Source: Torpedo marmorata (lineage: Eukaryota). Taken from it: 64,000 nt of DNA. Shown here one piece after another: positions 1,845 through 58,575 of the stretch; position 1 is the first letter of the stretch; each line of letters starts with the position of its first letter. A program made the translations under genes and the position numbers. Below the pieces are notes generated by a model. It saw only the letters and a program-made list of their open reading frames with translations, did no database searches and was not told the origin of the DNA. The DNA lies in the NCBI GenBank assembly GCA_977017645.1, contig OZ360229.1, positions 24,304,001-24,368,000 of the forward strand, in the 5' to 3' direction.

Positions 1845-2000
1845 AGGCATTTTCTCATACTTTGAAGAAGGGCTCAAGCCTGAAACGTCGGTTATGTATT
1901 TCTACCTTTGCTACATAAAGAACACTGTTTGACCTGCTGAGTTCTCCAGCATTTGTGTTTTTTACTTCATCCACGGTGTCTACAGATTTTCGTGTTTACT
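1845..2000 (+). repeat. Penelope-like terminal (pLTR/3' tail) fragment
   Basis: TTGAAGAAGGGCTCAAGCCTGAAACGTCGGTTATG... is near-identical to copies at about 38170 and 48983, and related tails follow GIY-YIG coding remnants at 57605-58575. Confidence 0.65.
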
Positions 2001-2199
2001 TTTGTTGGAGGCTGGTTCTCTTTAAAACCATATCTAATGTGTGTAGGATTAAGCCACATGGCTTCTCCAGTCTACTGCTGAATCTTCCATTGAGATCATG
2101 GCTGATCTGATCTTGGCAATAGCTTCACTTTCCCACTTTCTCCTTATGACACTCCCCTGCAAACCAAAATCTGTCCTTATTGGAATATATTCCACGAGG

Positions 2200-2636
2200 A
2201 AATACACAAAAGTGCTGGAGAAACTCAGGAGATCCCGCAGCGTCCATAGAAGGGCCTGAGCCCTTGGTCCAATGTATGAGCAAAAGGCAGGGAGGTGCCT
2301 AAATAAAAAGGGAGGGAAGGAGGGGCAGGGAGAGGAGGATAGGACAACACCAAGAGGTCATAGATGGGTATGGGTAGGAAGGCAGGACAGCAGACTCGAT
2401 GGGCCGATTGGCCTACTTATGCTTCTATATCTCGTGATCTATATCTTGTGAGAGAAAAGCTGAGAATTGATTGGGGGAGGGGGGTAGCTCTGTGAATGCA
2501 GAGCTGGAGAAAAGGAGACGAAGGGATAAGGAGAGATGGTGTGGTTGGGGGTAGGGGGGTTGCGGAGGTGGTTGGTGGAGGGCTATCGGAAACCAGAGAA
2601 ATTCATGTTAATACAATCTGGAAGGTGCGGAGATGG
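2200..2636 (-). repeat. Penelope-like fragment, interrupted by the BEL/Pao insertion
   Basis: Reverse-complement tail motif (ACACAAAAGTGCTGGAGAAACTCAG...), a purine-rich tract and a GIY-YIG-end-like sequence running into the GATGG TSD. Confidence 0.55.
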
Positions 2637-3025
2637 TATAAGTAACGGTGACTTCGCTCCACCAATAGTCACCTGGAGGCTAAGTGTGGTCCTTGCTTTT
2701 GACGCGTTTTATTTAATTTACTGACAAAGTCCAATATGTTCAAAAACCTTTATTTTCACACATGACTTGCAGTAATCTTCAATGACTTTAATATAAACAG
2801 TTCTTGTAAACGATGTATGATAAGTTCCTTTAAATTATTCCTTAAACAATTCCAAAATGATATGAAACACTGTAGATGATGTTAAAGTTATAGAAACATT
2901 ATAAAACGGTATAAAACGATATAAAACGGTCAATAAAGATGTGGAGACCAGACTCACCCCCCATACATCTCTATCCTTTCTTTGTTCTCTCTCTCTAATG
3001 GTTCTGCGCATGCTCCAACGCGCAT

Positions 3026-3108
3026 ACTACAATTCCCAGCCTCCCACGCGCACTATGACGTCACTCTATACTGCGCATGCGCCCGTCGGCACTCCCGCGC
3101 ATGCGCAT
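3026..3108. promoter_or_regulatory. LTR promoter motif cluster: ZNF143/THAP11-type site, CRE and NRF1 sites (also at +5600 in the 5' LTR)
   Basis: ACTACAATTCCCAGC at 3026-3040, TGACGTCA at 3056-3063, TGCGCATGCGC at 3072-3082 and GCGCATGCGCA at about 3097-3107. Confidence 0.6.
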
Positions 3109-3123
3109 ATCAAAGAACGGGCC

Positions 3124-3303
3124 GACGACGGCCCACAGAACAACGCAAGCGCTCCAAGGCCCGACGTGGCCTCGGAGCGCGCTGAGGACGGCCCAGTGAA
3201 CAACGCGAGCGCTCAATGGCCCGACGTGGCCCAGGAGCGCTCCGAGGACGGCCCACCGAACCACGCGAGCGCTCCAAGGCCCGACGAGACATCGGAGCGC
3301 CGC
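3124..3303. repeat. About 3 copies of a 60-bp CpG-rich tandem repeat inside the LTR (also 8724-8903)
   Basis: GAsGACGGCCCA...AAC.ACGC.AGCGCTC.A.GGCCCGACG...GGAGCGC recurs with period 60. Confidence 0.9.
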
Positions 3304-3542
3304 AACAACGGTAAGTTAACGAGCCTACGGCTCTTACACCGGCCCCTAATTATTATAATTAGACGTAATGTCTTGAATAATAATTACACTATAAATAATA
3401 ATAACCATAACATTCAAAACAATACAAATCTTCTTTCTTCCTTCTTCATAAATCTAGAGTTTACCATAACTCTGATTCAACAAAAGTCTGTAACCTGTGA
3501 AATGTACAACAACAAATAAAGTCAGTTTACATTTATCAAAGT

Positions 3543-3720
3543 TCCTCTGTCTCCAACAAAAGGCAGACCTTATTAATAGGTCTGTTTAGAAAACCAGTCT
3601 TAGTTTTAATTCGCACTTGACGCACAAGTCCTCTTTGTCTTGAAAAGTCTCAATAATCTTTTCCAAGTAACCAGGAATTTCTTGAAGTTGAACCATCCAT
3701 AACAATCACAATGTCTCTTT
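3543..3720 (-). pseudogene. Frameshifted BEL/Pao integrase C-terminal tail (DUF5641-like)
   Basis: Minus strand reads DIVIVMDGSTSRNSWLLGK / IIETFQDK / GLVRQVRIKTKTGFLNRPINKVCLLLETEE across frameshifts, the typical end of Pao pol. Confidence 0.85.
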
Positions 3721-3755
3721 AAAGTTCTTCCATCTTCACAATCCGAGTCAAAACG

Positions 3756-6700
3756 TTAACCAGTAAACCTCAAATCCTCCTCAGATAAAATAGATACAGT
3801 TTTTCTTTTGAATTTAACACAAGGCACTTCTTCAGCACGTCGTTTCACTTTATTCCTTTCTTCAGTATTCCACTTCTCATGTGAAGAATTTAAACTCTTA
3901 GAATTAGAATTTGAATATTTATCTGATTCTTTCGATTTTAAACAGGTCTGTTTAACCACTCTGGTTTCTAATGCTCTTTCCTGCAATTCTAAATCCAATT
4001 TCGCAATTTTCAATTCAGTCTCAGCTCCTTCCGAGAAATTAATAATTTGATCTGAAGTCAAAATATCATGCGATACATTGATAGTTCCATTGTCAATCCT
4101 GTTGCGGCATACTTGAAATTTTTTAATTTCTTCGTCTTGCTTGTTACATTTCTGCAATGCAATCTCACATTCTTTCTGCATTGTTAATTGTTGAACATTC
4201 AATTTACATTCTTGATTGGTTTTTAAAGTCAACTGTTTTGTGTTATTAACCAATAACTTGATCTCTTTCAAAACATTAATCTCTTCCTCCAACCTTTTAC
4301 ATTTTGATAATGCTGAATCTCTTTCCTCAATAATTGTATTCATTTCTTCAGCAGTTATTCTTTTCTTCCGCTTTCTGACTTTGCGAGTTTTACTTACAAT
4401 TAAATCCTTTTGTTTACTGTTTTCTTGATTATCTAATATTTCCAATTCCCCTTTCAACATTTTGTTCTCTGGATTCAATTGCATTGAATTATCATTCACA
4501 TTATTCTTTATTCCATCAGCACAATTTTCTGTGTTTTCCAGTTTTACATCACATTGTAATATTTCTTCATTAGCTTTGTCTGTTGTAATCTCTGAACTAC
4601 AAAATCTACATTCAGATTTGTTTTCAGTCACTTGTTTTATTCCTGTATCTGATTCAATTACACATGAATGATCAATAGTATTATTTGCAACATCTTCTAA
4701 TACTTCACTTTCATCCATTTCTGATGAAATTAATTTCTTTAATGTTGTTTTAAATACCACTGATTTATTTTTACATTGATCTGTTTTCTTTTCTTCATAA
4801 GTGATTTTCTTATTCACGGTTTTTTGCTCTTCTCTTAACTCTTCAAATTTCTCAACTGAAATTTTATTAACATTTATTGCTACCTGTTCCTGAGTAATAT
4901 CATTATTTCTTTCCATTGGTCCATTGATTGCCCAACCAAGTATGGTTCTAATAGCGTAAGGTCCATTCCTTTTACTTTCTATTACTTCTTTTGGTACCAA
5001 AACCTTTGGCACATCTGAACCAATCAGCATTTCTATTTCAGAATTAATTTCAGGTAAATAAACCTTCCACAGATAAGCTAAATGATGGATATCACTTTGA
5101 TGAGGAATATTTCCTTCGTTCACAGGCATAGTCTTCTGAGTATATACACTTGGAAGATCACAAAACTTTTTGTCATCCAATCCAGCAACCTCTAAGCCTG
5201 AAACAATGTTAGTTTCAACAACCTTTTCTTGTCCCATGGTCTTTAACATAATTCTTGATCTTTTTCCTTGAATATTAAGTTTATTCATTAGTCCTTCCGT
5301 GCAAAAAGATGCAGTGCTGCCTGGGTCTAAAAATGCATATGTTTTTACTATTACATCCCCTTTCTTGGCCTTGACTTGTACAGGCACTATTGAAAGTTTG
5401 CAGTTATTCACCCCGGCCCCAGTAAGACCACTTGTCTGAACCGAGGTTATAACATTATTTTCTGTTGTTTCCTTTGTTTCTGTTTGCTCCTTTTCCAATT
5501 CCTTGTTTCTGTTATGGATATGCAAAATTCTAGGATGTTTCAAATTGCATATGTTACAATTAATTCGCTTCTCGCAGTTTTTACTGATGTGCCCTTTACA
5601 CAAACAGCTAAAACATATTCCATTTTCCTTTAAGAAAGCGATCCTTTCCTTATGTTCCTTCCTTTCCAATTGTAAACACATTTCCAAAGCATGTCCACCT
5701 TTACAGAACAAACAACTCTTTTCATTAGGCAAACTTTCCTTTTCCTTATTTACTTTGTCCTTTTCTTTATTTATAACTTGCACATTAGTAGCAAAAGTAC
5801 TCCTTTTCACTTTCGGACTAGACTGTGAATTAGACTTCCTTACATCTTTGCTCATTGAATTATCTCTGATATTTCCATATAGTGGATCTGTTTCAACATA
5901 CACTTGTCGTTCAAGAAAATTTACCAAATCCTTTAAAGTAATTCTTCGACCATAATTTACTTGTAAATCACAAGCCAAATTTCTCCATCTATCCCATACC
6001 TTGTAAGGTAATTTTTCTAAAATGATTCGCATATTACTATGCACATCAAGCTCACGAATACCATCGATTTCTTCCATAGCATTACAACATCCTCTTAAAA
6101 ACAAAGTATATTCTTGCAAAGCCTTTACATCATTTTGTTTTATTGATGTCCATTTAAGAGCTTTATCCATATAAGCTAAAGCAATTCGATGTTTGTTGCC
6201 AAAATATTGTTCCAATAAATCCTTAGCTTTATCTAATCCTCTTCCTGAAGACATTTGATTACAACTTTTAACCAGTTCCTTTGGATGTCCCTTTGTAAAC
6301 ATTTCCAAATAATAAAGACATTCATCACGATCTTGGCATTTATCTTCAATATTGCGTTTGAAAGATCTCATAAATGATTGATATTGAAGTGGATCACCAT
6401 CAAAAGTTTGTATCTCTTTCTTGGGTAAAGAAGAGAGAGACTGTAACTGAAACAATGACGCAGCAATTTCATTTTGTCTTTCCTTGGATTTCAATACATT
6501 ACTCTGTTCACTGTCTCGTGTTGTATGCAATGTATCTGGAAACCTTACTGGTGTAGTTTCTTCCATATTTCTGATGCTTGACTCATATAACAAAGAATTT
6601 ACTTCGTTCGACCGGACCCAAGCCGCAGCTTTGCTTTCAGATGTTACTAATGGTACATGTGACTCGATACCAATATGCTCGTGAAAGGTTTGTCCTTGTA

Positions 6701-7832
6701 TATGTAAGTTTTGTATCCTTGGTTCTAAAATATCTATCCTTTTGGTTGGTTTCTTTTCCTGTGACTCCTTTTTTAAATATGACCTTTTATTATCAGACAA
6801 TTTAGATGATTTACTGCTAGCACCAGATACCATTGAGCCTTCTATTGCTTTCTTTTCTGCCTTGGCAATAGCAATGTTTGCTTCCAGCTCCTGCTGTTCT
6901 TTTCTCTTCCTTAGCTGCTCCTTCTCTTGTCTTAGCTGCTCCTTTAGCTGTTTCTCATTTTGTCTTAGCTGCTCCTCCTCTTGTCTTAGCTGCTCCTTTA
7001 GCTGTTTCTCATTTTGTCTTAGCTGCTCCTCCTCTTGTCTTAGCTGCTCCTTTAGCTGCTCCTCCTTTTGTCTTAGCTGCTCCTTTAGCTGCTCCTCCTT
7101 TTGTCTTAGCTGCTCCTTTAGCTGCTCCTCCTTTTGTCTTAGCTGCTCCTTTAGCTGCTCCTCCTTTTGTCTTAGCTGCTCCTTTAGCTGCTCCTCCTTT
7201 TGTCTTAGCTGCTCCTTTAGCTGCTCCTCCTTTTGTCTTAGCTGCTCCTCCTCTTCTTCCAAAATATATTTATCCTTAAGCGTTTTTTGTTGTGCAATAA
7301 GAGCGGCCAATTTAACATCAATCCTTGTACGTGACGATGCAGAACTTGAAGTACGAGAAACTCTGGAGCTTGAACCAGAACTTCTTTTGCTTCTCCTGCT
7401 TTCAGCATTTGAGACACTGTCACTTGCTTGTATTTCGTCCTGCATTTCATATGTTGTCTTCATACTTACCTCTTTATCCAATTCGAATTGTATATCCTTT
7501 GCATCTTCAACCAATTCAATTTCTTCCTCATTTGGTGACACAATTTCAGCCATTTCCAAGTTATCTTCTTGTTCAAATAATGAAGCTGCCTCTTCATCCT
7601 TTGCCAGCTTCAATCTTTCAATAAGAACCTTTTTATTTCCACTTATGTCCTTATTCAGTCGCTTCAATTCTTCTTTAATATCCGAAACCTTCATGTCTTC
7701 AATACGTTGGTCCTCAACAGCAACATCAGCGGTTGCTGCGTCAGCTGCTGATAAATCAGTAGCTGCTGTATCAGTGGCTGCTGCGGCCATTTTACTCGTC
7801 TTGTTCCTCTTTCCTTCAAGCATACACAACAC
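3756..7832 (-). CDS. Chimeric polyprotein: SAP domain, hendecad coiled coil, Pao Gag (DUF1759-like, three Zn knuckles), Pao aspartic protease, MIPOL1-like coiled coil; no RT/RH/IN
   Basis: Uninterrupted 1358-aa frame; the probable start is the strong-Kozak AAAATGGCC at 7790. Motifs: LPKKEIQTFDGDPLQY, CLFCKGGHALEMC, CFSCLCKGHISKNC, CNICNLKHPRILH, TYAFLDPGSTASF, RTILGWAINGP. These are followed by RITAEEMNTIIEERDSALSKCKRLEEE. Confidence 0.9.
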   Translation of the reverse strand: MLCMLEGKRNKTSKMAAAATDTAATDLSAADAATADVAVEDQRIEDMKVSDIKEELKRLNKDISGNKKVLIERLKLAKDEEAASLFEQEDNLEMAEIVSPNEEEIELVEDAKDIQFELDKEVSMKTTYEMQDEIQASDSVSNAESRRSKRSSGSSSRVSRTSSSASSRTRIDVKLAALIAQQKTLKDKYILEEEEEQLRQKEEQLKEQLRQKEEQLKEQLRQKEEQLKEQLRQKEEQLKEQLRQKEEQLKEQLRQKEEQLKEQLRQEEEQLRQNEKQLKEQLRQEEEQLRQNEKQLKEQLRQEKEQLRKRKEQQELEANIAIAKAEKKAIEGSMVSGASSKSSKLSDNKRSYLKKESQEKKPTKRIDILEPRIQNLHIQGQTFHEHIGIESHVPLVTSESKAAAWVRSNEVNSLLYESSIRNMEETTPVRFPDTLHTTRDSEQSNVLKSKERQNEIAASLFQLQSLSSLPKKEIQTFDGDPLQYQSFMRSFKRNIEDKCQDRDECLYYLEMFTKGHPKELVKSCNQMSSGRGLDKAKDLLEQYFGNKHRIALAYMDKALKWTSIKQNDVKALQEYTLFLRGCCNAMEEIDGIRELDVHSNMRIILEKLPYKVWDRWRNLACDLQVNYGRRITLKDLVNFLERQVYVETDPLYGNIRDNSMSKDVRKSNSQSSPKVKRSTFATNVQVINKEKDKVNKEKESLPNEKSCLFCKGGHALEMCLQLERKEHKERIAFLKENGICFSCLCKGHISKNCEKRINCNICNLKHPRILHIHNRNKELEKEQTETKETTENNVITSVQTSGLTGAGVNNCKLSIVPVQVKAKKGDVIVKTYAFLDPGSTASFCTEGLMNKLNIQGKRSRIMLKTMGQEKVVETNIVSGLEVAGLDDKKFCDLPSVYTQKTMPVNEGNIPHQSDIHHLAYLWKVYLPEINSEIEMLIGSDVPKVLVPKEVIESKRNGPYAIRTILGWAINGPMERNNDITQEQVAINVNKISVEKFEELREEQKTVNKKITYEEKKTDQCKNKSVVFKTTLKKLISSEMDESEVLEDVANNTIDHSCVIESDTGIKQVTENKSECRFCSSEITTDKANEEILQCDVKLENTENCADGIKNNVNDNSMQLNPENKMLKGELEILDNQENSKQKDLIVSKTRKVRKRKKRITAEEMNTIIEERDSALSKCKRLEEEINVLKEIKLLVNNTKQLTLKTNQECKLNVQQLTMQKECEIALQKCNKQDEEIKKFQVCRNRIDNGTINVSHDILTSDQIINFSEGAETELKIAKLDLELQERALETRVVKQTCLKSKESDKYSNSNSKSLNSSHEKWNTEERNKVKRRAEEVPCVKFKRKTVSILSEEDLRFTG
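6905..7252 (-). repeat. In-frame 33-bp tandem repeat encoding (EQLRQKEEQLK)n
   Basis: TTGTCTTAGCTGCTCCTTTAGCTGCTCCTCCTT repeated, with 21-bp variant units; the frame is preserved throughout. Confidence 0.95.
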
Positions 7833-8236
7833 TAGTCAAACAACGGTCCCCAATGGACCAGCGGCAGCAATTCCAATCTGTGTTCTTACTTGCTAAAGAT
7901 ACACAGAAGGAGTCCACAGACTTATGCCTACCACTTCTAATGACTGTAATGTGCTGCAATCCTTAAACGAGTTTCAACCACAACATCCGTCACTAATATC
8001 ACTGATATTCCAAAAATAGTTTCTCCAACGTATTTATAGGACACTTTTCTATAAGATTTGAAGCTTTAAATCACTCTCTGGCTGTTATTCATGGCAGATG
8101 GATGTAGATTACAAACTGCCCCCAACTCGAGGCATCTCCAAAATGGCCACCAATTTATATCAGTCCAAAGCACAGAGAGTTTTTTCTATCTTCTTTCCTT
8201 CAAACTTCTGTTCCAAACAGCCAGCCCTTTATTGAC

Positions 8237-8938
8237 TATAAGTAACGGTGACTTCGCTCCACCAATAGTCACCTGGAGGCTAAGTGTGGTCCTTGCTTTT
8301 GACGCGTTTTATTTAATTTACTGACAAAGTCCAATATGTTCAAAAACCTTTATTTTCACACATGACTTGCAGTAATCTTCAATGACTTTAATATAAACAG
8401 TTCTTGTAAACGATGTATGATAAGTTCCTTTAAATTATTCCTTAAACAATTCCAAAATGATATGAAACACTGTAGATGATGTTAAAGTTATAGAAACATT
8501 ATAAAACGGTATAAAACGATATAAAACGGTCAATAAAGATGTGGAGACCAGACTCACCCCCCATACATCTCTATCCTTTCTTTGTTCTCTCTCTCTAATG
8601 GTTCTGCGCATGCTCCAACGCGCATACTACAATTCCCAGCCTCCCACGCGCACTATGACGTCACTCTATACTGCGCATGCGCCCGTCGGCACTCCCGCGC
8701 ATGCGCATATCAAAGAACGGGCCGACGACGGCCCACAGAACAACGCAAGCGCTCCAAGGCCCGACGTGGCCTCGGAGCGCGCTGAGGACGGCCCAGTGAA
8801 CAACGCGAGCGCTCAATGGCCCGACGTGGCCCAGGAGCGCTCCGAGGACGGCCCACCGAACCACGCGAGCGCTCCAAGGCCCGACGAGACATCGGAGCGC
8901 CGCAACAACGGTAAGTTAACGAGCCTACGGCTCTTACA
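8237..8938 (-). repeat. 5' LTR of the BEL/Pao element (702 bp)
   Basis: Matches 2637-3338 and is flanked by the TSD GATGG at 8939-8943. Confidence 0.95.
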
Positions 8939-9276
8939 GATGGAATATATTCTGAGTTAGTTGTGTCAACCCCTCTTTACATATGTAGCCTGAAACTTGC
9001 TCTAGGTGTGATTTTACCAGGGTCCTCTTGGTTCTGGGAGACTGATGTGCTGTTAGGGTGCCCTCGATTAGCTTGTGCTCTTAATTGGTCAGTTCTCTGT
9101 TGTGAGGTACTCACTGAAGTGGCTGTAGTTTGAGGAAGCAGACTTGGATGAATTGGGGAAGAGTGTGCCTGAGAGCTGGAGGTTGCAGGAGACCTGATAT
9201 TCTTAATTCACTCATCTCAATCCTACCCAGATTATGTGAGCACCATTGTAGCCCCCAGATCCCCACTGAAGCTGGC

Positions 9277-9763
9277 ACATAAGAACATAAGAAAGTAGGA
9301 ACAGGAGTAGGCCAACCGGCCCACCGAGCCTGCTCCGCCATTGAATAAGATCATGGCTGATCTGATCAATGACCTAACTCCATCTACCTGCCCTTTCCCC
9401 ATATCCCCTAATTCCTTTTTTATGTAAAAATCTATCCAACTGAACCTTAAATATGTTCAATGAAGCAGCCTCAACCGCTTCCCTGGGTAGAGAATTCCAC
9501 AAATTCACCACTCTTTGGGGAAAAACTGTTTTTCCTCATCTCTGTCCTAAATCTACTCCCCCGAATCTTGAGTCTGTGTCCCCTAGTCTTGGTCTCACCC
9601 GCCAGTGAAAAAACCTTCCTACCTCTATCCTATCCATCCCCTTCATAATTCTATATGTTTCTATAAGATCTCCTCTCATTCTTCTGAACTCGAGCGAGTA
9701 TAATCCCAGACGATTTAATCTTTCATCATAAATCAACCCCTTCATCTCAGGGATCAACCTGGT
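9277..9763 (-). mobile_element. CR1-like LINE 3' fragment
   Basis: RLNRLGLYSLEFRRMRGDLIETYRIMKG (CR1 ORF2 C-terminus) and an (ACATAAGA)n tail. Same family as 37052-37812. Confidence 0.85.
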
Positions 9764-10517
9764 CATAGCCCTTTGGAACACGGAACACAGTTGTAGTTGT
9801 CTACTCTCTTCTAGCAGCATTGATGGCCTGCAGATCCACAACCTGCTATCCCTGAGAATTGGTTCAGGATCAGCAGAGCACTGGGTTAAAATAAAAACAC
9901 AATGCTGGAGAAACTTAGCAGGTCAAACAGTGTACTTTATATAGCAAAGATAAAGATACATAACCAGGTGCCCGAACAAAATGGTGGGGAGGAGCACAGT
10001 CCCAAAGGCACTGGAGCATTGGGCTGTGTCTTGGCATAGCCTGGCTCAGAAGAACAAATTATTTCTGAGGTTCTCCCAGCTCTACACCAGCCTGGGAGGG
10101 AATGTGGATGCCAACTAATCCTCACTCCTTCCATACTACTGGGCGCAGCTTCAAACAGCTCCCCAAGGACCTTCAATATGTTTCTCTATCGTGGGGGAAT
10201 CATCTGACCTTTCCATCAACTTTACTGACTGACGATCTCCATTTGCCTTCTGCCTGATTATAGATCAGTCATGTGTCTTCCCATGTGAACCATTCTTCTC
10301 CATTTTAACTCTTCCTTGTATTACCAATATCTGAGTTGACGCTCCATGGAAAGGTGTTTTGGCAAAGTGGGGTGTGCTTTATTTTCCCCATTGTCTGTAA
10401 TTCCTGCCTCTTATCATAATCTGCAGAAGTCTCCTACAGCTCCTGTGGGACAGCAAGTTGCAGGATAGTGCATCTTTTCCCTACTGTAACTCTTGCAAGA
10501 AAAAGAATGGAAGATAG

Positions 10518-17712: not shown

Positions 17713-20377
17713 ATTTTTATTTATTTTGTAAGGTGCTTTATATGAAGGTTTGCACTATGATGCTGCCGCAAAACAACAAATTTCGTGACATGCTCATGAC
17801 AATAAATTCTGAGTCTGAAAATTCTTTAAGAGAGAACTGAGGGGCAATGTTTCAATTAGAGTAGTTTTTAAAAAATTTTAAAAATATTTTATTTAAAATT
17901 TTTAATCACAAAATACATAAAATAGAATATAAAATTATCAAATTATTTATGACACATTTTCACCCCCCTCCCTCCCTCCCCTCCCCAACCCCCCCCACCC
18001 CCACTAATCTAATAAAAATATAATAAAAAGTAATAAAGAAAAAAGAAAGAAAGAAAAAGATAAAGTAAGGGGAATGCCATCTAGAAACTAATTCTATTAT
18101 GGAGGTCAAGTGTGCCAGTAGATCCGATATCCAGAGATCTTCAAATCCTTAAACCAACAGCTTTCATATATGGGCTCCAAATTTTTAAGAAAAAATGATA
18201 TTTATTACGTAAATTATAAGTAATTTTTTCAAGTGGTATACACGAACGAAGTTCTGCATGCCATCTTTCTAATCCTAAATCTAAATCAAATTTCTAAGTA
18301 ATAGCAATGCATTTTTTTGAAACAGCTAAAGCAATTCGCAAAAATTCTATTTGATACATATTTAATTTCATCTTAATGCTAAATTTTCTAATATCTCCAA
18401 ACAAAAATATCATAGGATCCATTGGGAATGTAATTTTAAATACTTTATCTAAATTTTTTTTAACTTTAAACCAAAAATCATAAACTTTTGGACAAAACCA
18501 TGTAGAATGTACAAAAGAACCTTCTTCTTTATTACATCTAAAACATAAACCTGAAAGTGTCGGATTAAATTTCTTTAATTTTTTAAGTGTTAAATATAGT
18601 TGATGAAAAAAATTATACTGTACTAATCTGTATCTAACATTAATAATCTTCGTCATACTAAATTTGCATAATTCTTTCCAATGATTTTCATCTATTCTTA
18701 CATTCAAATCTAATTCCCATTTTAATCTTGATTTATGTAATCCTATTTTAGGCAATTTCCTCTGAAACAATTTATACATTTGAGAAATAAATTTATTAAC
18801 ATCTCCATTAGTAACTAATAATTCTAATTCATTTTGTCTTGGTAGAATCAAAGCATAACCTAATTTCTCAATCAAAAAAGATCTAATTTGATAATAAGCA
18901 AAAAGTGTATTATCTGATATATTAAATTTATCTTTCATTCTTTGAAAAGTAATAAATTTCCCAGCTTCAAAACAATCTTTAATCTTTTTAATACCTTTTT
19001 GAAACTAAATTTTAAATAATTGATTATTAACAGTAAATGGAATAAGTCCATTTTGATATAAAGGCATCCTTGAAGAAATCAATCCTTTTCCACCTATTTC
19101 CTTATCTGTCTTGTTACATATTTCTAACAAATGTTTAAAAATAGGCGAATTTTTTTTTTTGTTGATATTAATTTAGAATCCCATTTATAAATAATTTCTT
19201 CTTTGGAGTCATCACCTATATTATTTAATTCTATTTTAATCCAAGCAGGAGATTTAGTTGAATCAAAAAATTCATTAACAAATTTTAATTGAGCTGCTTT
19301 ATAATAATTTTGAAAATTAGGAAGTTGTAAGCCACCCATTTCATAATTCCAAGTTAATTTTTCCATACCTACTCTTGCTAACTTTCCTTTCCATAAAAAT
19401 TTCCTAATAATTGAATTTAAATCTTTAAAAATTTTTTGAGGAATTCCATAAGGAATTGATTGAAAAAGATATTGAATTCTTGGAAAAATATTCATTTTAA
19501 TACAGTTTACTCTTCCCATTAAAGTTATAGGTAAATCTTTCCAATTTTCTAAATCTTTCTTTATTTTCACAAATAATGGTAGATAATTTAATTTATATAA
19601 ATTAGCCAATTTTGTATCAGCCCTTACTCCTAAATATTTAATTCCTTCCCTTGCCCATTTAAATTGTGTAATTTCTTTACATCTACTATAATCCCCTTGT
19701 GATAATGCCATAATTTCACTTTTATCAGAATTAATTTTATATCCAGATATTTCCCCATATTCTCTCAATAAAATAGACAATTGTACTAAAGATGTAATAG
19801 ATTTTGTCATATATATCAATACATCATCTGCAAACAAACTAATTTTATGTTCTTCCATTCCAACTTTAATACCAACTATTTTAGGATCTTTTCTAACTAA
19901 TTCAGCCAAAGGTTCTATCGCCAAAATAAATAATGCTGGTGACAAAGGACATCCCTGTCTAGTAGATCAAGTCAAAAGAAATTTTGGAGAAATTTGTCCA
20001 TTTGTAACTACTTTAGCCGATGGTTCTTTATATATAGTTTTAATCCAATTAATAAATGTATTTCCAAAGCCAAATTTCTCCAGTACCTTAAATAAAAAAT
20101 TCCATTCTACTCTATCAAAAGCCTTTTCAGCGTCTAATGTTAAAACTAATGGTAAATCTTCCTTCTTTTTATGTAAATTAATTAAGCTAATCAATCTAGC
20201 TATATTATCTTTTGAATATCTATTTTTAATAAAACTAGCTTGATCTACATGAATTAAATCTGGTAAATAATTAGCCATTCTATTTGCTAAAATTTTTGCC
20301 ATTATCTTATAGTCTACATTTAATAATGAAATAGGTCTATAAGATTCAGTTTTCAATATATCTCTATCCTTCTTTGG
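17713..20377 (-). mobile_element. 5'-truncated fish-type L1 (ORF2 RT to C-terminal zinc knuckle, disrupted) with about 150 bp of extra 3' sequence
   Basis: SYRPISLLNVDYKI, LDAEKAFDRVEW, LFADDVLIY and CFRCNKEEGSFVHSTWFC, with stops and frameshifts. TSD TCAAGTGCTCATT at 17700-17712 and 20378-20390. Confidence 0.9.
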
Positions 20378-32351: not shown

Positions 32352-33566
32352 TTCAAAATCAGAATTTATTGTCGTGAGCGTGTCACAAAATTTGTTGTTT
32401 TGCGGCAGCATTACAGGAGTAAAATTGCTATAAATTACATTTAAAAAAAATAAATGAATTAGTGCAAAAAGAAGAGAAAAATTAGGTAGTGTCTGTGGTT
32501 CATTGTTCATTCAGAAACCTGATGGACGAGGGGAAGAAGCTGTTTTTGTACCTTTGAGTCTTCAGACTCCTGTACCTCCTTCCGGATGGTAGCAGTGAGG
32601 GCATGGCCTGGGGGTGAGGGTCCTTGAGGATAGAGGCTGCTTTCTTGAGACACCGCCTCTTGTAAATGTCCTTAATGGAGTGAAGACTGATGCCCATGAT
32701 GGCGCTGGCAGAGTCTTTTCCTGTCCCGTGCATTGGCACCTCCGTACCAGACAGTGAAGCAACAAGTCAGAATGCTCTCTACTGTACACCTGTAGAAATT
32801 TGCAAGAGTCTTTGGTAACATACCAAACCTCCTCAAACTCCTCACAAGGTATAGCCACTGGCGAGCCTTCTTCATGGTGCCATCGACGTGGAGGCTCCAA
32901 GAAAGATCTTGAGAGATGTTGACACCCAGCAATTTGAAGTTCTTAATCCTTTCCACTGTCGACCCCTCGATGAGAACTGGTTTGTGTTCTCCTGATTTCC
33001 CCCTCCTGAAGTATACAATAAGTTCCTTAGTTTTGCTAACTTTGAGTGCAAGTTTGTTGTTGTGACACCATTCATCCAGCTGACCTATCTCACTCCTGTA
33101 CGCTTCCTCATTGCCTTCTGTGATTCTGCCGACAACCGCGGTGTCCTCGTCAAATTTGTAGATGACATTTGAATTGTGCCTAGCCACAGAGTCATGAGTG
33201 TAGAACATGTAGAGCATGCATCCTTGAGGTGCGCCTGTGTTGATTGTCAGTGAGGAGGACATGTTGTTTCCGATTCATACTGACTGTGGTCTTCTGATGA
33301 GGAAGTCAAGGATCCAGTTCCAGAAGGAGGTGCAGAGGCCCAGGCTTTGAAGCTTGCTGACCAGTACTGAGGGTATGATTAAGTTGAAAGCCGAGCTGTA
33401 GTCAATGAAGAGTAGCTTGATGTACATGTTGCTGTTTTTCAGGTGATCCAGGGCTGAGTGGAGAGCCAGTGAGATTGCATCTGCTGTGGAGAGATTATAG
33501 CAGTAGGCAAATTGTAGTGGGTCCAGGTCTTAGGTACGAATTAATTCTGGCCATGACCAACCTCTC
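32352..33566 (-). mobile_element. Rex1/Babar-like LINE 3' fragment (RT, decayed)
   Basis: INTGAPQGC, YKFDEDTAVVGRI (degenerate FADD) and FYRCTVESILT..WYG, with a 3' tail at 32352. Confidence 0.85.
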
Positions 33567-37051: not shown

Positions 37052-37812
37052 ATGGCTGATCTGATCAATGACCTAACTCCACCTACCTGCCCTTTCCCCA
37101 TATCCCCTAATTCCTTTTTCATGTAAAAATCTATCCAACTGAACTTTAAATATGTTCAATGAAGCAGCCACAACCACTTCCCTGGGTAGAGAACTCCACA
37201 AATTCACCACTCTTTGGGAAAAACTGTTTTTCCTCATCTCTGTCCTAAATCTACTCCCCCGAATCTTGAGGCTGTGTCCCCAAGTTTTGGTCTCACCCGC
37301 CAGTGAAAAAAACCTTCCTACCTCTATCCTATCCATCCCCTTCATAATTCTATATGTTTCTATAAGATCTCCTCTCATTCTTCTGAACTCAAGCGAGTAT
37401 AATCCCAGATGATTTAATCTTTCTTCATAGGTCAACGCCTTCATCTCAGGGATCAACCTAGTAAACCTCCTCTGGACTGCCTTCAAGGCCAGTATATCCT
37501 TCCTCAAATACGGAGACCAGAACTGCACACAGTACTCCAGGTGCGGTCTCACCAGTACCTTGTACAGTTGCAACATTACCTCCTTGCTCCTGAATTCAAT
37601 TCCTCCAGCGATGAACGCCAACATTCCATTTGCCTTCTTAATAACCTGCTGCACCTGCAACCCAACTTTTTGCGATTCGTGCACAAGCACTCCCAAGTCC
37701 TTCTGCACAACAGCATGCTGCAGTTTTTCACCATTTAAATAATACTCTGCTCTTTTATTTTTCTTGCCAAAGTGGATAACCTCGCACTTACTAACATTGT
37801 ACTCCATCTCCA
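37052..37812 (-). mobile_element. CR1-like LINE ORF2 3' fragment
   Basis: KCEVIHFGKKN, LYKVLVRPHLEYCVQFWSPY and LGLYSLEFRRMRGDLIE. Confidence 0.9.
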
Positions 37813-37877
37813 TCGCCAATATTGTCTCCTTGTTGAAATCCCTCAGCCCCCTTTTCACCATATCCTATAACACAAAT

Positions 37878-46727: not shown

Positions 46728-48727
46728 CAGAATCAGAATTTATTGTCATGAACATCAAGTCCAGTCAAGTCAAGTCACCTTTATTTGTCGTTCATTACCA
46801 TATACACAGTAAGACGAGATAGCGTTTCTCCAGGACCATGAGCAAATGTACATAAATATCATAATACAATAGAAAAACTATAACATGCTAATACACATAT
46901 ATATCTAAAAATTGAGGAGCCTGATGGCTTGGGGGGAAAAACTGTTGCACAATCTGGACGTATGAGCCCGAATGCTTCGGTACCTCCTTCCAGATGGCAA
47001 AAGGGAAAAAAGTTTACCAAAGGGGTGTGAGAAGTCCTTCACAATGTTATTAGCCTTCCTCATGCATTGTGTGTTGTAGATGTCCGTCATGGTGGGAAGA
47101 GAGACACCAATATTTTTTCCGCTGACCCCACTATCCTCTGCAGGGTCTTTCGGTCCGAAATGGTACAGTTTCCAAACCAAGCGGTGATGCAATTTCTCAG
47201 AATACTCTCAATACATCCCCTGTAGAATGTAGTAAGGATAGAGGGTGGAAGATGAACTTTCCTCAGCCTTCGCAGGAAGTAAAAGCGCTGCTGGGCTTTC
47301 TTGGCTATGGAACTGGTGTTGAGGGACCAGGTGAGATTCTCCGCCAAGTGCACTCCAAGAAACTTGGTACTCTTTACGACCTCAATGGTAGAGCCGTCCA
47401 TGGTCAATGGAGAATGATCCCCCCAGGCCCTCCTGAAGTCGACAACCAACTCTTTTGTTTTATTTACATTCAGATGCAGGTTGTTGGCTCCGCACCATTC
47501 CATTAGCGACTGCACCTCATCTCTGTATGCTCACTCATCGTTCTTGCTGATAAGGCCCACCACGGTTGTATCATCAGCAAACTTTATGATGTGATTCGAG
47601 CTGTGTTTTGCTGCACAGTCATGAGTCAGCAGAGTGAACAGCAATGGACTAAGCACACAGCCTTGGGGAGCCCCCGTGCTCAATGTAATGACCTTAGAAG
47701 TGCTGTTTCCAATCCGGACTGCCTGAGGTCTTCCCGTCAGGAAGTCTAGAATCCAATTACAGAGGATGTTATTTAGGCCCAGGCCGCTCAACCTCCCTAT
47801 CAGGTACTGAGGTATGATCGTGTTGAATGCTGAGCTGAAATCAATAAACAGCATTCGAACATACGCGTCCTTATTTTCCAGGTGGGTGAGGGCTAGATGG
47901 AGGGTGGTAATGATGGCATCATCTGTGGAGCGGTTTGATCTATATGCGAACTGCAGGGGGTCCAGTGAGGGGGGCAGCAGAAGCTTGATGTGCCCCATGA
48001 CGAGCCTCTCGAAGCACTTCATGACAGTAGATGTGAGTGCGACAGGGCGGTAGTCATTGAGGCAGGACACCATCGACTTCTTCGGCACGGAGACGATGGA
48101 AGCGGCTTTGAAGCACGTTGGAACCAAGGCACTGCTCAGGGAGATGTTAAAGATGTCGGTGAGAACATCTGCCAGCTGGGCCGCACATCCCCTGAGCACT
48201 CTGTCGGGAATGTTATCTGGACCAGCAGCTTTCCGTGGGTTAACCTTGCTTAACACTCTCCTCACGTCGGCCACTGTAAAACATGTCACAAAATTAGTTG
48301 TTTTGCAGCAGCACTACAGTACAAATATTGCTATAAATTACATTTAAAAATAAATAAATAGTGCAAGAAAATGGGAGAAAGTGAGGTAGTGTCTGTGGTT
48401 CATTGTTCATTCAGAAATCTGATGCCAGAGGGGAAGGAGCTGTCCTTGTGCCACTGAGTGCTCGTCTTCAGGCTCCTGTACCATATTCCTGATGGTAGCA
48501 GAGTGAAGAGGGCATGGCCTGGGTGGTGGGGGTCCTTGAGGATAGAGGCTGCTTTCTAAAGGCACCACCTCTTGTAAATGTCATTGATGGAGTGAAGTCT
48601 GGTGCCTGTGATGTCACTGGCTGAGTTAACAACTCTTTGGAGTTTTTTCCTGTCCTGTGCATTGGCACCCCCATACCAAATAGTAATGCAACCAGTCAGA
48701 ATGCTCTCCACAGTACATCTGGAGAAA
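46728..48727 (-). mobile_element. Outer Rex1/Babar-like 3' fragment (46728-46755 plus 48281-48727)
   Basis: TCAGAATCAGAATTTATTGTCATGAACAT resumes at AACATGTCACAAAATT..., matching the uninterrupted copies at 14858 and 32352. Confidence 0.75.
46756..48280 (-). mobile_element. Rex1/Babar-like LINE (RT, 5'-truncated) nested in the tail of another Rex-like element
   Basis: [46 protein letters not shown] and [17 protein letters not shown] is duplicated at 46751-46755 and 48281-48285. Confidence 0.88.
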
Positions 48728-57604: not shown

Positions 57605-58575
57605 CTGTCCCCTTTCTCGATCTCGCTGACTCCATTTGTAAGACAAACTCTCGACAGACATCTTCCACAAAGCCTTCCGCAGGGACCACTCCCTCCATGA
57701 CTCGCTCATCCACTCCTCCCTTCCTAACACTCGCCCCCTTGGCACCTACCCCTGTGACCGTAGAAGGTGTGCCACTTGCGCCCACACCTCCTCCCTCACC
57801 ACCATTCAGGGCTCCAAACAGACCTTCCAAGTGAAGCAACACCACATGAATCTGCAGGGGTCATCTACTGCATCCGGTGCACCCGTTCTGGTCTCCTCTA
57901 CATCTGAGAGACTGGAAGCAGACGGAGATCACTTCGTTGAGCACCTCGGCTCTGTCCGCCACAACAGTAGGGATCTCCCAGTGGCCACCCATTTCATTTC
58001 CCCATCCCATTCCCTTGCTGACATGTCTGCCCATGGTCTCATGCACTGCCAGACTTGGACCACCCGCAAATTGGAGGAACAACACTTCCTATTCCATCTG
58101 AACACCCTCCAACCGAATGGCATTAACATTGACTTCGATTTCCGTTAGCCCCCCTCTCTCCCCTCTCCCCCNNNNNNNNNNNNNNNNNNNNNNNNNNNNN
58201 NNNNNNNNNNNNNNNNNNNNNNNNNNNNNNNNNNNNNNNNNNNNNNNNNNNNNNNNNNNNNNNNNNNNNNNNNNNNNNNNNNNNNNNNNNNNNNNNNNNN
58301 NNNNNGCTCTGCTTCTACAGAACCCCAAACTTCCCCCTTCCCCAGTCAATTCTCACCTGTGTCCCATCCATATCCAATTAACACCTTTTGTCTGTTGGTC
58401 TGGACTACTCCCCCGCTGATTCTTCCCTCCCCAGCTTTTTAATTCAAGCGCCTGCCTGCTTTTTATTCGCACCTCGAAGAAGGGCTCAGGCCCAAAATGT
58501 CGGTGACAGTATATATCTTTACCTCCTATGGGCGCTGCGAGACCTGCTGATTTCCTCCAGCATTTCTGTGTTTTA
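57605..58575 (+). mobile_element. Penelope-like element fragment with a decayed GIY-YIG endonuclease end
   Basis: GDHFVEHLGSVRHNSRDLPVATHF...RKLEEQHFLFHLNTLQPNGINIDF followed by the tail motif. Confidence 0.8.
58172..58305. other. Assembly gap (134 N)
   Basis: Run of N within the CT-rich tract of the Penelope-like tail. Confidence 1.

Follow-up and report, generated by a model that had tools for sequence, protein, structure and literature searches.

Within a 64,000-nucleotide stretch of the Torpedo marmorata genome (assembly GCA_977017645.1, contig OZ360229.1, positions 24,304,001 to 24,368,000; hereafter the window), we identified a newly inserted long terminal repeat (LTR) element of BEL/Pao descent in which about 360 codons replacing Pol are, as judged from protein similarity, host cargo, with BRCA1 and MIPOL1 pieces that continue the reading frame of Gag and protease. 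A first-pass annotation, made from the letters alone, had described the element but had not recognised the replacement of Pol as captured BRCA1/MIPOL1 messenger RNA (mRNA), which is the main finding here. Taken as a whole, the element is probably a non-autonomous BEL/Pao LTR retrotransposon that transduced host genes and was remobilised by a helper.

The cargo was recognised from the 381 C-terminal residues that follow the protease, which were searched against 1.84 billion protein representatives and yielded 35 matches, none of them annotated as BEL (the alignments, trees and counts exclude P0129 and 18 of the 35). Sixteen of the 17 matches examined belong to one coiled-coil family, named MIPOL1 in Atlas and in the UniRef record of Pristiophorus japonicus, and the remaining one (P0124) is a protein of 1,943 residues that has a RING domain and two BRCT domains and, among solved structures, is closest to BRCA1. 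Element residues 995-1141 are identical to P0124 at 75 of 143 positions (score 308, shuffle maximum 80), and MIPOL1 piece A is identical to the MIPOL1 of the sawshark P. japonicus (P0157) at 58 of 102 (score 284, shuffle maximum 83). MIPOL1 piece B scores 13.0 bits, which none of 300 shuffles reached (best 9.4), and stems from upstream of piece A in the gene, so that the order of the two is swapped in the element. An artefact of composition was rejected by shuffling (0/200 for BRCA1; 0/300 for piece A with each of six MIPOL1 orthologues; 0-3/300 for piece B), and so was a degenerate Pol, the C-terminus being without similarity to the 120 BEL relatives described below (best E 0.95). Residues 1240-1267 and 1294-1356 found no match in PDB, Pfam or two large protein searches, and a supposed resemblance to SUDS3 gained no support.

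The gene models of MIPOL1 orthologues break at P0157 positions ~501-504 (one model), 540/541 (three models) and 571-575 (two models), and piece A spans the first two breaks without insertion and ends near the third. If the breaks are exon junctions, piece A would come from spliced RNA, since two of them are crossed without insertion. The element thus shares with LTR-mediated retrocopies both a partial host mRNA that replaces the internal open reading frame (ORF) between the LTRs and, in piece A, intron loss at junctions deduced from gene models. At both joints the cargo alignments overlap by a few residues at the protein level, which is only suggestive of microsimilarity at switch points.

Ahead of the cargo, the ORF follows a BEL/Pao plan, and its BEL homology ends near residue 1001. 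A query with the Gag-protease part (residues 455-985) retrieved 286 protein matches, the best 120 of which are 43-61% identical and in many cases carry Pao-peptidase, reverse transcriptase (RT) and DUF5641 domains. A triple Cys-His box with LLDxG-like and LIG protease motifs is a hallmark of Pao-like elements in the sections consulted of PMC554778; the element has this box and the protease motifs, together with DUF1759 and DUF5641. The full-length relative P0004 (2,007 residues) matches anywhere in the window only through its residues 204-896 and 1944-2001, whereas no window frame contains the roughly 1,050 residues that hold RT, ribonuclease H (RNase H) and, from integrase, the zinc finger and core, and a YxDD motif search found none. 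From this partial matching over 64 kb it follows that the element has lost RT, RNase H and the integrase core and that the window holds no helper. The DUF5641 tail matches P0004 residues 1944-2001 at 64% but is scattered over several frames with one stop. The first-pass annotation was therefore right that a 4-kb ORF runs without a stop (1,359 codons), that RT and integrase are absent, and that the integrase tail is frameshifted; in its sequence, the element is a BEL/Pao derivative and not an autonomous member.

Of the 146 columns that 52 full-length relatives conserve, the Gag-protease part retains 130, which points to constraint, though less than in an autonomous element. The earlier proposal that the element supplies Gag and protease survives in part: the Cys-His boxes and protease motifs are intact, but fewer conserved columns are kept than in any of the 52 relatives, and such a supply is no more than plausible. 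An exact look-up of two versions of the ORF in the protein collection gave no identical entry, and an Rfam scan of 2000-10000 gave 0 matches. The RT-less proteins among the 120 relatives were rejected as copies of the same family, as their tails share nothing with the cargo, and most of them are simply truncated. Three fish proteins (P0026, P0047 and P0095) lose BEL homology past the protease, at nearly the same point as the element, and continue into unrelated, partly coiled-coil sequence, which could reflect parallel captures or spliced gene-model artefacts. In P0038 from Oreochromis aureus (a cluster of 12), a BEL Gag-protease is followed by a DnaJ domain and then by an integrase C-terminus, making it a candidate for another host-gene capture in place of RT.

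The insertion itself is clean. The two LTRs are identical at 702 of 702 bases, with matching that breaks off at both boundaries and a 95% upper bound on divergence of 0.43%, and the target-site duplication (TSD) GATGG is present on both sides, so pairwise alignment upholds the earlier reading by eye of undiffering LTRs and an intact TSD. A TSD of 4-6 bp and TG...CA termini, with a U5 end of CA, are found in most LTR elements (PMC12440569). The 5-bp TSD here agrees with that of autonomous BEL/Pao elements, but both LTRs read TG...TA in element orientation and not TG...CA; the TA end of U5 (2637-2640 and 8237-8240) occurs in both LTRs, yet a clean 5-bp duplication was produced. A literature search on TA-type U5 ends found nothing. 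The insertion target is an older repeat, matching a fragment at 57642-58148, and the left flank retrieves three other copies of it in the window. One of these is uninterrupted (58094, minus strand) and has GATGG once, followed by the same four bases as the right flank, although beyond these nine bases its similarity does not rise above shuffles (44/200); of the other two, one diverges directly after GATGG and one before it. A single copy of the element was detected in the window, which does not by itself make the family named in the first-pass annotation. The CpG density of the LTR, which the first-pass annotation mentioned, is weak evidence of youth: its observed/expected CpG ratio is 1.32, as against 1.11 in a neighbouring LTR, presumably Gypsy, whose pair is only 95% identical, and we rejected CpG retention as a clock because that older LTR is nearly as rich.

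Evolutionarily, the cargo has a longer history than the insertion. In a 14-row tree, piece A joins three shark-type MIPOL1 orthologues (support 99/99) on a branch of 0.58, compared with 0.03-0.11 for those orthologues; this position points to capture within cartilaginous fishes, with the caveat that the placement of long-branch rows is less sure. Piece A is 59-61% identical to shark-type MIPOL1, while those sequences are 83-88% identical to one another. It is altered at 23 of 73 columns common to the three shark-type orthologues without acquiring a stop, where 2.6-3.6 stops are expected in its 94 codons (P 0.03-0.08); over all 356 cargo codons the expectation, extrapolated as if the piece A rate were general, would be 8.5-12.5. 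One 1-codon deletion is in frame, and GC content at third codon positions is 0.19-0.31 in the cargo and 0.25-0.28 in Gag-protease, but the cargo retains only 34 of 54 conserved MIPOL1 columns, against 77-95% in nine orthologues. The frame has been kept, the protein sequence has not. The contrast of divergences (a cargo branch of 0.58 against 0/702 LTR differences) shows that the capture is old and the insertion new, and therefore that the chimera was copied again by an RT and integrase that it does not encode, in agreement with the earlier view that the chimera predates the insertion and was probably mobilised in trans. This suggests that host gene fragments can ride for very long in such an element.

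Tf1 and Tj1 are Ty3/Gypsy-type elements. In their self-priming, as set out in the sections consulted of PMC4600332, the primer site lies directly after the 5' LTR and is complementary to a stretch inside the LTR, and the same arrangement is seen here: the ten bases that open the internal region after the 5' LTR complement LTR positions 401-410 exactly, and an eleventh pair would be G-U. Of 4,888 internal 10-mers, the LTR contains a complement to only two, one of them directly after the 5' LTR, and three of 6,000 simulated LTRs contained that complement. A transcription start is predicted near 8539, with 45 of the 53 CpGs upstream and two AATAAA signals downstream. By analogy with Tf1, we consider it somewhat likelier than a coin toss that the 5' end of the transcript itself serves as the primer for minus-strand synthesis. 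Self-priming in BEL/Pao was not found in the titles and abstract openings searched, which does not show it to be absent from print. The near-palindromic motifs of the predicted U3 are presumably NRF1 motifs. On the plus strand, antisense open frames of 204 and 151 codons (2905-3519 and 8505-8960) lie over the CpG-rich LTR repeats, downstream of TATAAAA repeats, and are probably incidental.

Functionally, we propose the following course. A BEL/Pao Gag and protease came to have its Pol interval replaced by BRCA1 and MIPOL1 pieces in one frame, as the ORF displays, and the pattern argues strongly that spliced host mRNAs were co-packaged in a particle and joined through several RT template switches in a cartilaginous-fish host. 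The chimera would then have been recopied with RT and integrase presumably from a co-expressed full-length BEL element. Having retained its LTRs, primer site and purine tract, it may make its own Gag-protease, probably packaging its own RNA, in mixed particles with helper Gag-Pol, and its minus strand may be primed by the transcript's own 5' end. Selection would hold the frame open through the cargo while amino acids drift, and for this reason the cargo is most likely a translated stuffer, serving RNA stability or genome length, and not a working BRCA1 or MIPOL1.

Several observations weigh against this account. The BRCA1 assignment comes from one record, and the other large protein search retrieved no BRCA1; the exon junctions were derived from protein gene models and not from host DNA. 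The stop-codon test is borderline where it is measurable, in piece A, and its stronger value comes from extrapolation. The erosion of Gag-protease exceeds that in all 52 full-length relatives (0.890 of conserved columns, against a minimum of 0.892 and a median of 0.966). The self-primer duplex enters the minimum-energy fold for one of three fragment ends (2/6 folds), with a pair probability of at most 0.14 and a z of -1.39, and U5 ends in TA, against CA in most LTR elements (PMC12440569). Finally, no second copy and no helper were found in the window, and the best database relative is only 61% identical.

Among other explanations, the one that fares best, though it is unlikely, is a host-maintained chimeric gene of the Bs1 type, in which a source locus aged under host selection and gave rise to one recent copy here. 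The frame kept through old cargo, the CpG-rich LTR with intact promoter-like motifs and an eroded Gag suited to an altered role would all fit such domestication, and Gag-host fusions and Bs1 are on record (PMC8321522; sections consulted of PMC13317346). Yet every cis signal for reverse transcription is intact, the cargo drifts fast in its amino acids (the 34/54 columns above) and is element-like in third-position GC (0.19-0.31 vs 0.25-0.28), and no orthologue turned up among the proteins of other species searched. Co-opted gag genes are fixed, syntenic between species and under purifying selection, with LTRs that have decayed; here the LTRs are undecayed and an orthologue was not found, while a source copy may exist elsewhere. 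We regard as distinctly improbable a nesting at the DNA level, in which retrocopies of BRCA1 and MIPOL1 made by long interspersed nuclear elements (LINEs) landed in a full BEL element, deletions removed Pol and frames were joined by chance. The window is LINE-rich, and cartilaginous fishes are rich in retrocopies, with MIPOL1 among the top five parents (sections consulted of 10.64898/2026.06.26.734816), but what was captured is short and internal, stems from two genes without relation to each other, is swapped in order, and lies throughout in sense and in frame; the pieces replace the ORF instead of interrupting it, the template-switch pattern in the sections consulted of PMC5131818, and no poly-A tract is visible at the joints. 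Least probable of all is a false youth, with assembly collapse or gene conversion having erased the LTR differences of a chimera long dead, for although the window is scaffolded (N run at 58172-58305) and CpG content does not separate the LTR from the older Gypsy one, the identity covers the LTR exactly and ends where the TSD begins, the assembly resolves, in frame, an array of 340 bp whose units are nearly identical, the stop-free 4-kb ORF is unlike the broken elements around it, and the cargo is left unexplained.

Defective transducing retroviruses with gag-onc fusions likewise carry cellular sequence in frame with Gag in place of Pol, depend on a helper and have cargo diverging from the parent gene; compared with them, the Torpedo element has no envelope and no sign of infectivity, and its cargo lacks the RING and BRCT domains. 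In LTR-mediated retrocopies, template switching puts partial host mRNAs in the place of some of the internal ORF between two LTRs (Tan et al. 2016, PMC5131818), and in the sections of that study consulted several parent genes can be combined (a four-gene case in mouse), secondary retroposition occurs, and one mosquito case is flanked by BEL18_AG. Those retrocopies are young or polymorphic, however, whereas here an old in-frame cargo sits in a new insertion in a cartilaginous-fish host, and these sections describe no in-frame Gag-protease-cargo ORF kept over long divergence. Maize Bs1 is a single LTR element that unites fragments from three host genes, has a hybrid ORF, was remobilised, and exists in 1-5 copies with common switch points (sections consulted of PMC5131818 and PMC13317346); it differs in being a plant element and, according to the same sections, a transcribed and translated host gene, while the present element, known from sequence alone, is a vertebrate BEL/Pao with an intact protease and an integrase-tail remnant. 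Plant TR-GAG elements also have LTRs, one Gag ORF, no RT or integrase, and apparent activity, but in the sections consulted of PMC4350172 they are shorter than 4 kb, with Copia or Gypsy Gag and no host cargo; at 6,302 bp (6.3 kb), with a BEL/Pao Gag, protease and cargo, the Torpedo element falls outside that group. With full-length fish BEL/Pao elements (P0003, P0004, P0008) it has in common a triple Cys-His box, LDxG and LIG motifs, DUF1759 and DUF5641, as well as a single ORF, a 5-bp TSD and the size range (sections consulted of PMC554778 and PMC3118150), and it differs from them in lacking RT, RNase H and integrase core, in its SAP insert and expanded coiled coil, in its TG...TA ends and in having no TGG primer site.

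No description of the element or its cargo was found in the literature searched, whose scope left out most subscription journals and Repbase. It stands out by a combination of traits: the backbone is BEL/Pao in a vertebrate, host pieces of old capture are read in frame with Gag-protease, the insertion is new, U5 ends in TA, and a self-primer may be present. That LTR elements capture host mRNA is already known, and the animal cases compared are young passengers; the element offers a natural test of why transduced exons persist, whether for the sake of the element, for that of the host or only as open-frame filler. Within BEL/Pao, which is the least studied of the LTR groups, it is also a candidate for priming without tRNA and for an end other than CA.

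A 2026 preprint covering 244 genomes of vertebrates puts MIPOL1 at the head of the five genes with the most retrocopies in cartilaginous fishes, and interprets retrocopy lists of the same type as lineage-specific filtering; BRCA1 is not mentioned in the sections consulted (10.64898/2026.06.26.734816). If amplified, an element of this BRCA1/MIPOL1 kind would explain that rank, in which case such MIPOL1 "retrocopies" should sit between its LTRs with the BRCA1 piece upstream, although the junction filter of the pipeline, which according to the same sections requires one of the last three exon junctions, may exclude piece A. We entertain, as a doubtful proposition, a fuller reading in which a long-lived, self-primed, helper-replicated BEL/Pao lineage of sharks and rays, its cargo diverged by ~0.6 changes per site, uses the Gag-fused host pieces as working parts, and its spread, in place of LINE retroposition and host selection, accounts for the top rank of MIPOL1. 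The SAP domain would then tether Gag to chromatin or RNA, and the BRCA1 and MIPOL1 coiled coils would be scaffold or decoys for host restriction; BRCA1 restricts LINE-1 (review, PMC8535693). The sections consulted of the preprint also list SUDS3, SDF2L1, SLU7 and ZNF276 among the top cartilaginous-fish parents and PIWIL2/DND1 in amphibians (10.64898/2026.06.26.734816), all candidates for cargo of similar LTR elements.

Table 1 Features of the BEL/Pao-derived element, in element orientation (window positions; residues numbered along the ORF).
Feature	Position	Strand	Detail
BEL/Pao-derived element	8938 to 2637	minus	6,302 bp
TSD GATGG, right copy	8939..8943		
5' LTR	8237..8938	minus	702 bp
Predicted U3	8540..8938	minus	three 60-bp repeats and three near-palindromic motifs; 45 CpGs (53 in the whole LTR)
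Candidate self-primer and predicted transcription start	8529..8539	minus	same sequence at 2929-2939 in 3' LTR; by analogy with Tf1/Tj1
Primer-site position without TGG transfer RNA (tRNA) signature	8226..8236	minus	complement of LTR positions 401-410 over 10 bases; one further G-U pair
Single ORF: SAP insert, Gag, protease, host cargo	3756..7835	minus	1,359 codons between stops; P0001 = 7826..3759
N-terminal insert replacing relatives' Gag N-terminus	7467..7790	minus	residues 13-120 (~108); SAP domain at 42-73, Pfam E 3.8e-08
In-frame tandem expansion of native Gag coiled coil	6911..7249	minus	33-bp unit, ~10 copies
Gag capsid region, DUF1759	5982..6404	minus	Pfam E 6.8e-07
Gag triple Cys-His box, intact	5520..5714	minus	boxes at residues 705, 738, 757
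BEL-type aspartic protease	4842..5381	minus	LDPGS (residue 833) and LIGSD (residue 934) intact
BRCA1 piece, from region after RING domain	4404..4826	minus	residues ~1001-1141; P0124 196-354
MIPOL1 piece A	4110..4415	minus	residues 1138-1239; P0157 467-569
Linker of unassigned source	4026..4109	minus	residues 1240-1267
MIPOL1 piece B	3948..4025	minus	residues 1268-1293; P0157 366-397
ORF tail, not BEL, source unassigned	3756..3947	minus	residues 1294-1356
Broken integrase C-terminus remnant (DUF5641)	3539..3735	minus	Pfam E 5.6e-08; out of frame with ORF
Purine-rich tract abutting 3' LTR (polypurine tract position)	3339..3353	minus	role inferred from position
3' LTR	2637..3338	minus	702 bp
TSD GATGG, left copy	2632..2636		with right copy, chance ~1 in 1000

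Two further changes affect the Gag region. The N-terminal SAP insert has no match better than E 0.75 among the 120 BEL relatives, and a search for its source gave 0 of 545 candidates at E 0.001 and no usable match in Atlas; its best PDB match, the SAP domain of MKL1, reaches only E 0.00024. It may resemble the N-termini of SAFB and SLTM, and it may come from another retroelement. The coiled-coil unit, single in relatives, is expanded about tenfold in the element, and 17 of 17 anchor spacings in the array are multiples of 3.

Elsewhere in the window, a second LTR element (26924-~31270), which we take to be Gypsy, has a GC-rich interior where pieces of a Gag, a protease, an RT and an integrase are spread over several frames, an LTR pair that is 95% identical over 213 aligned bases, and a TGG-type primer site. 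Repeat fragments lie at 18294-19966, 32672-33274, 37073-37864, 47531-48313 and 57642-58148, and from their translations are presumably LINE-like or Penelope-like. The assembly is scaffolded at 58172-58305, where a run of 134 N stands.

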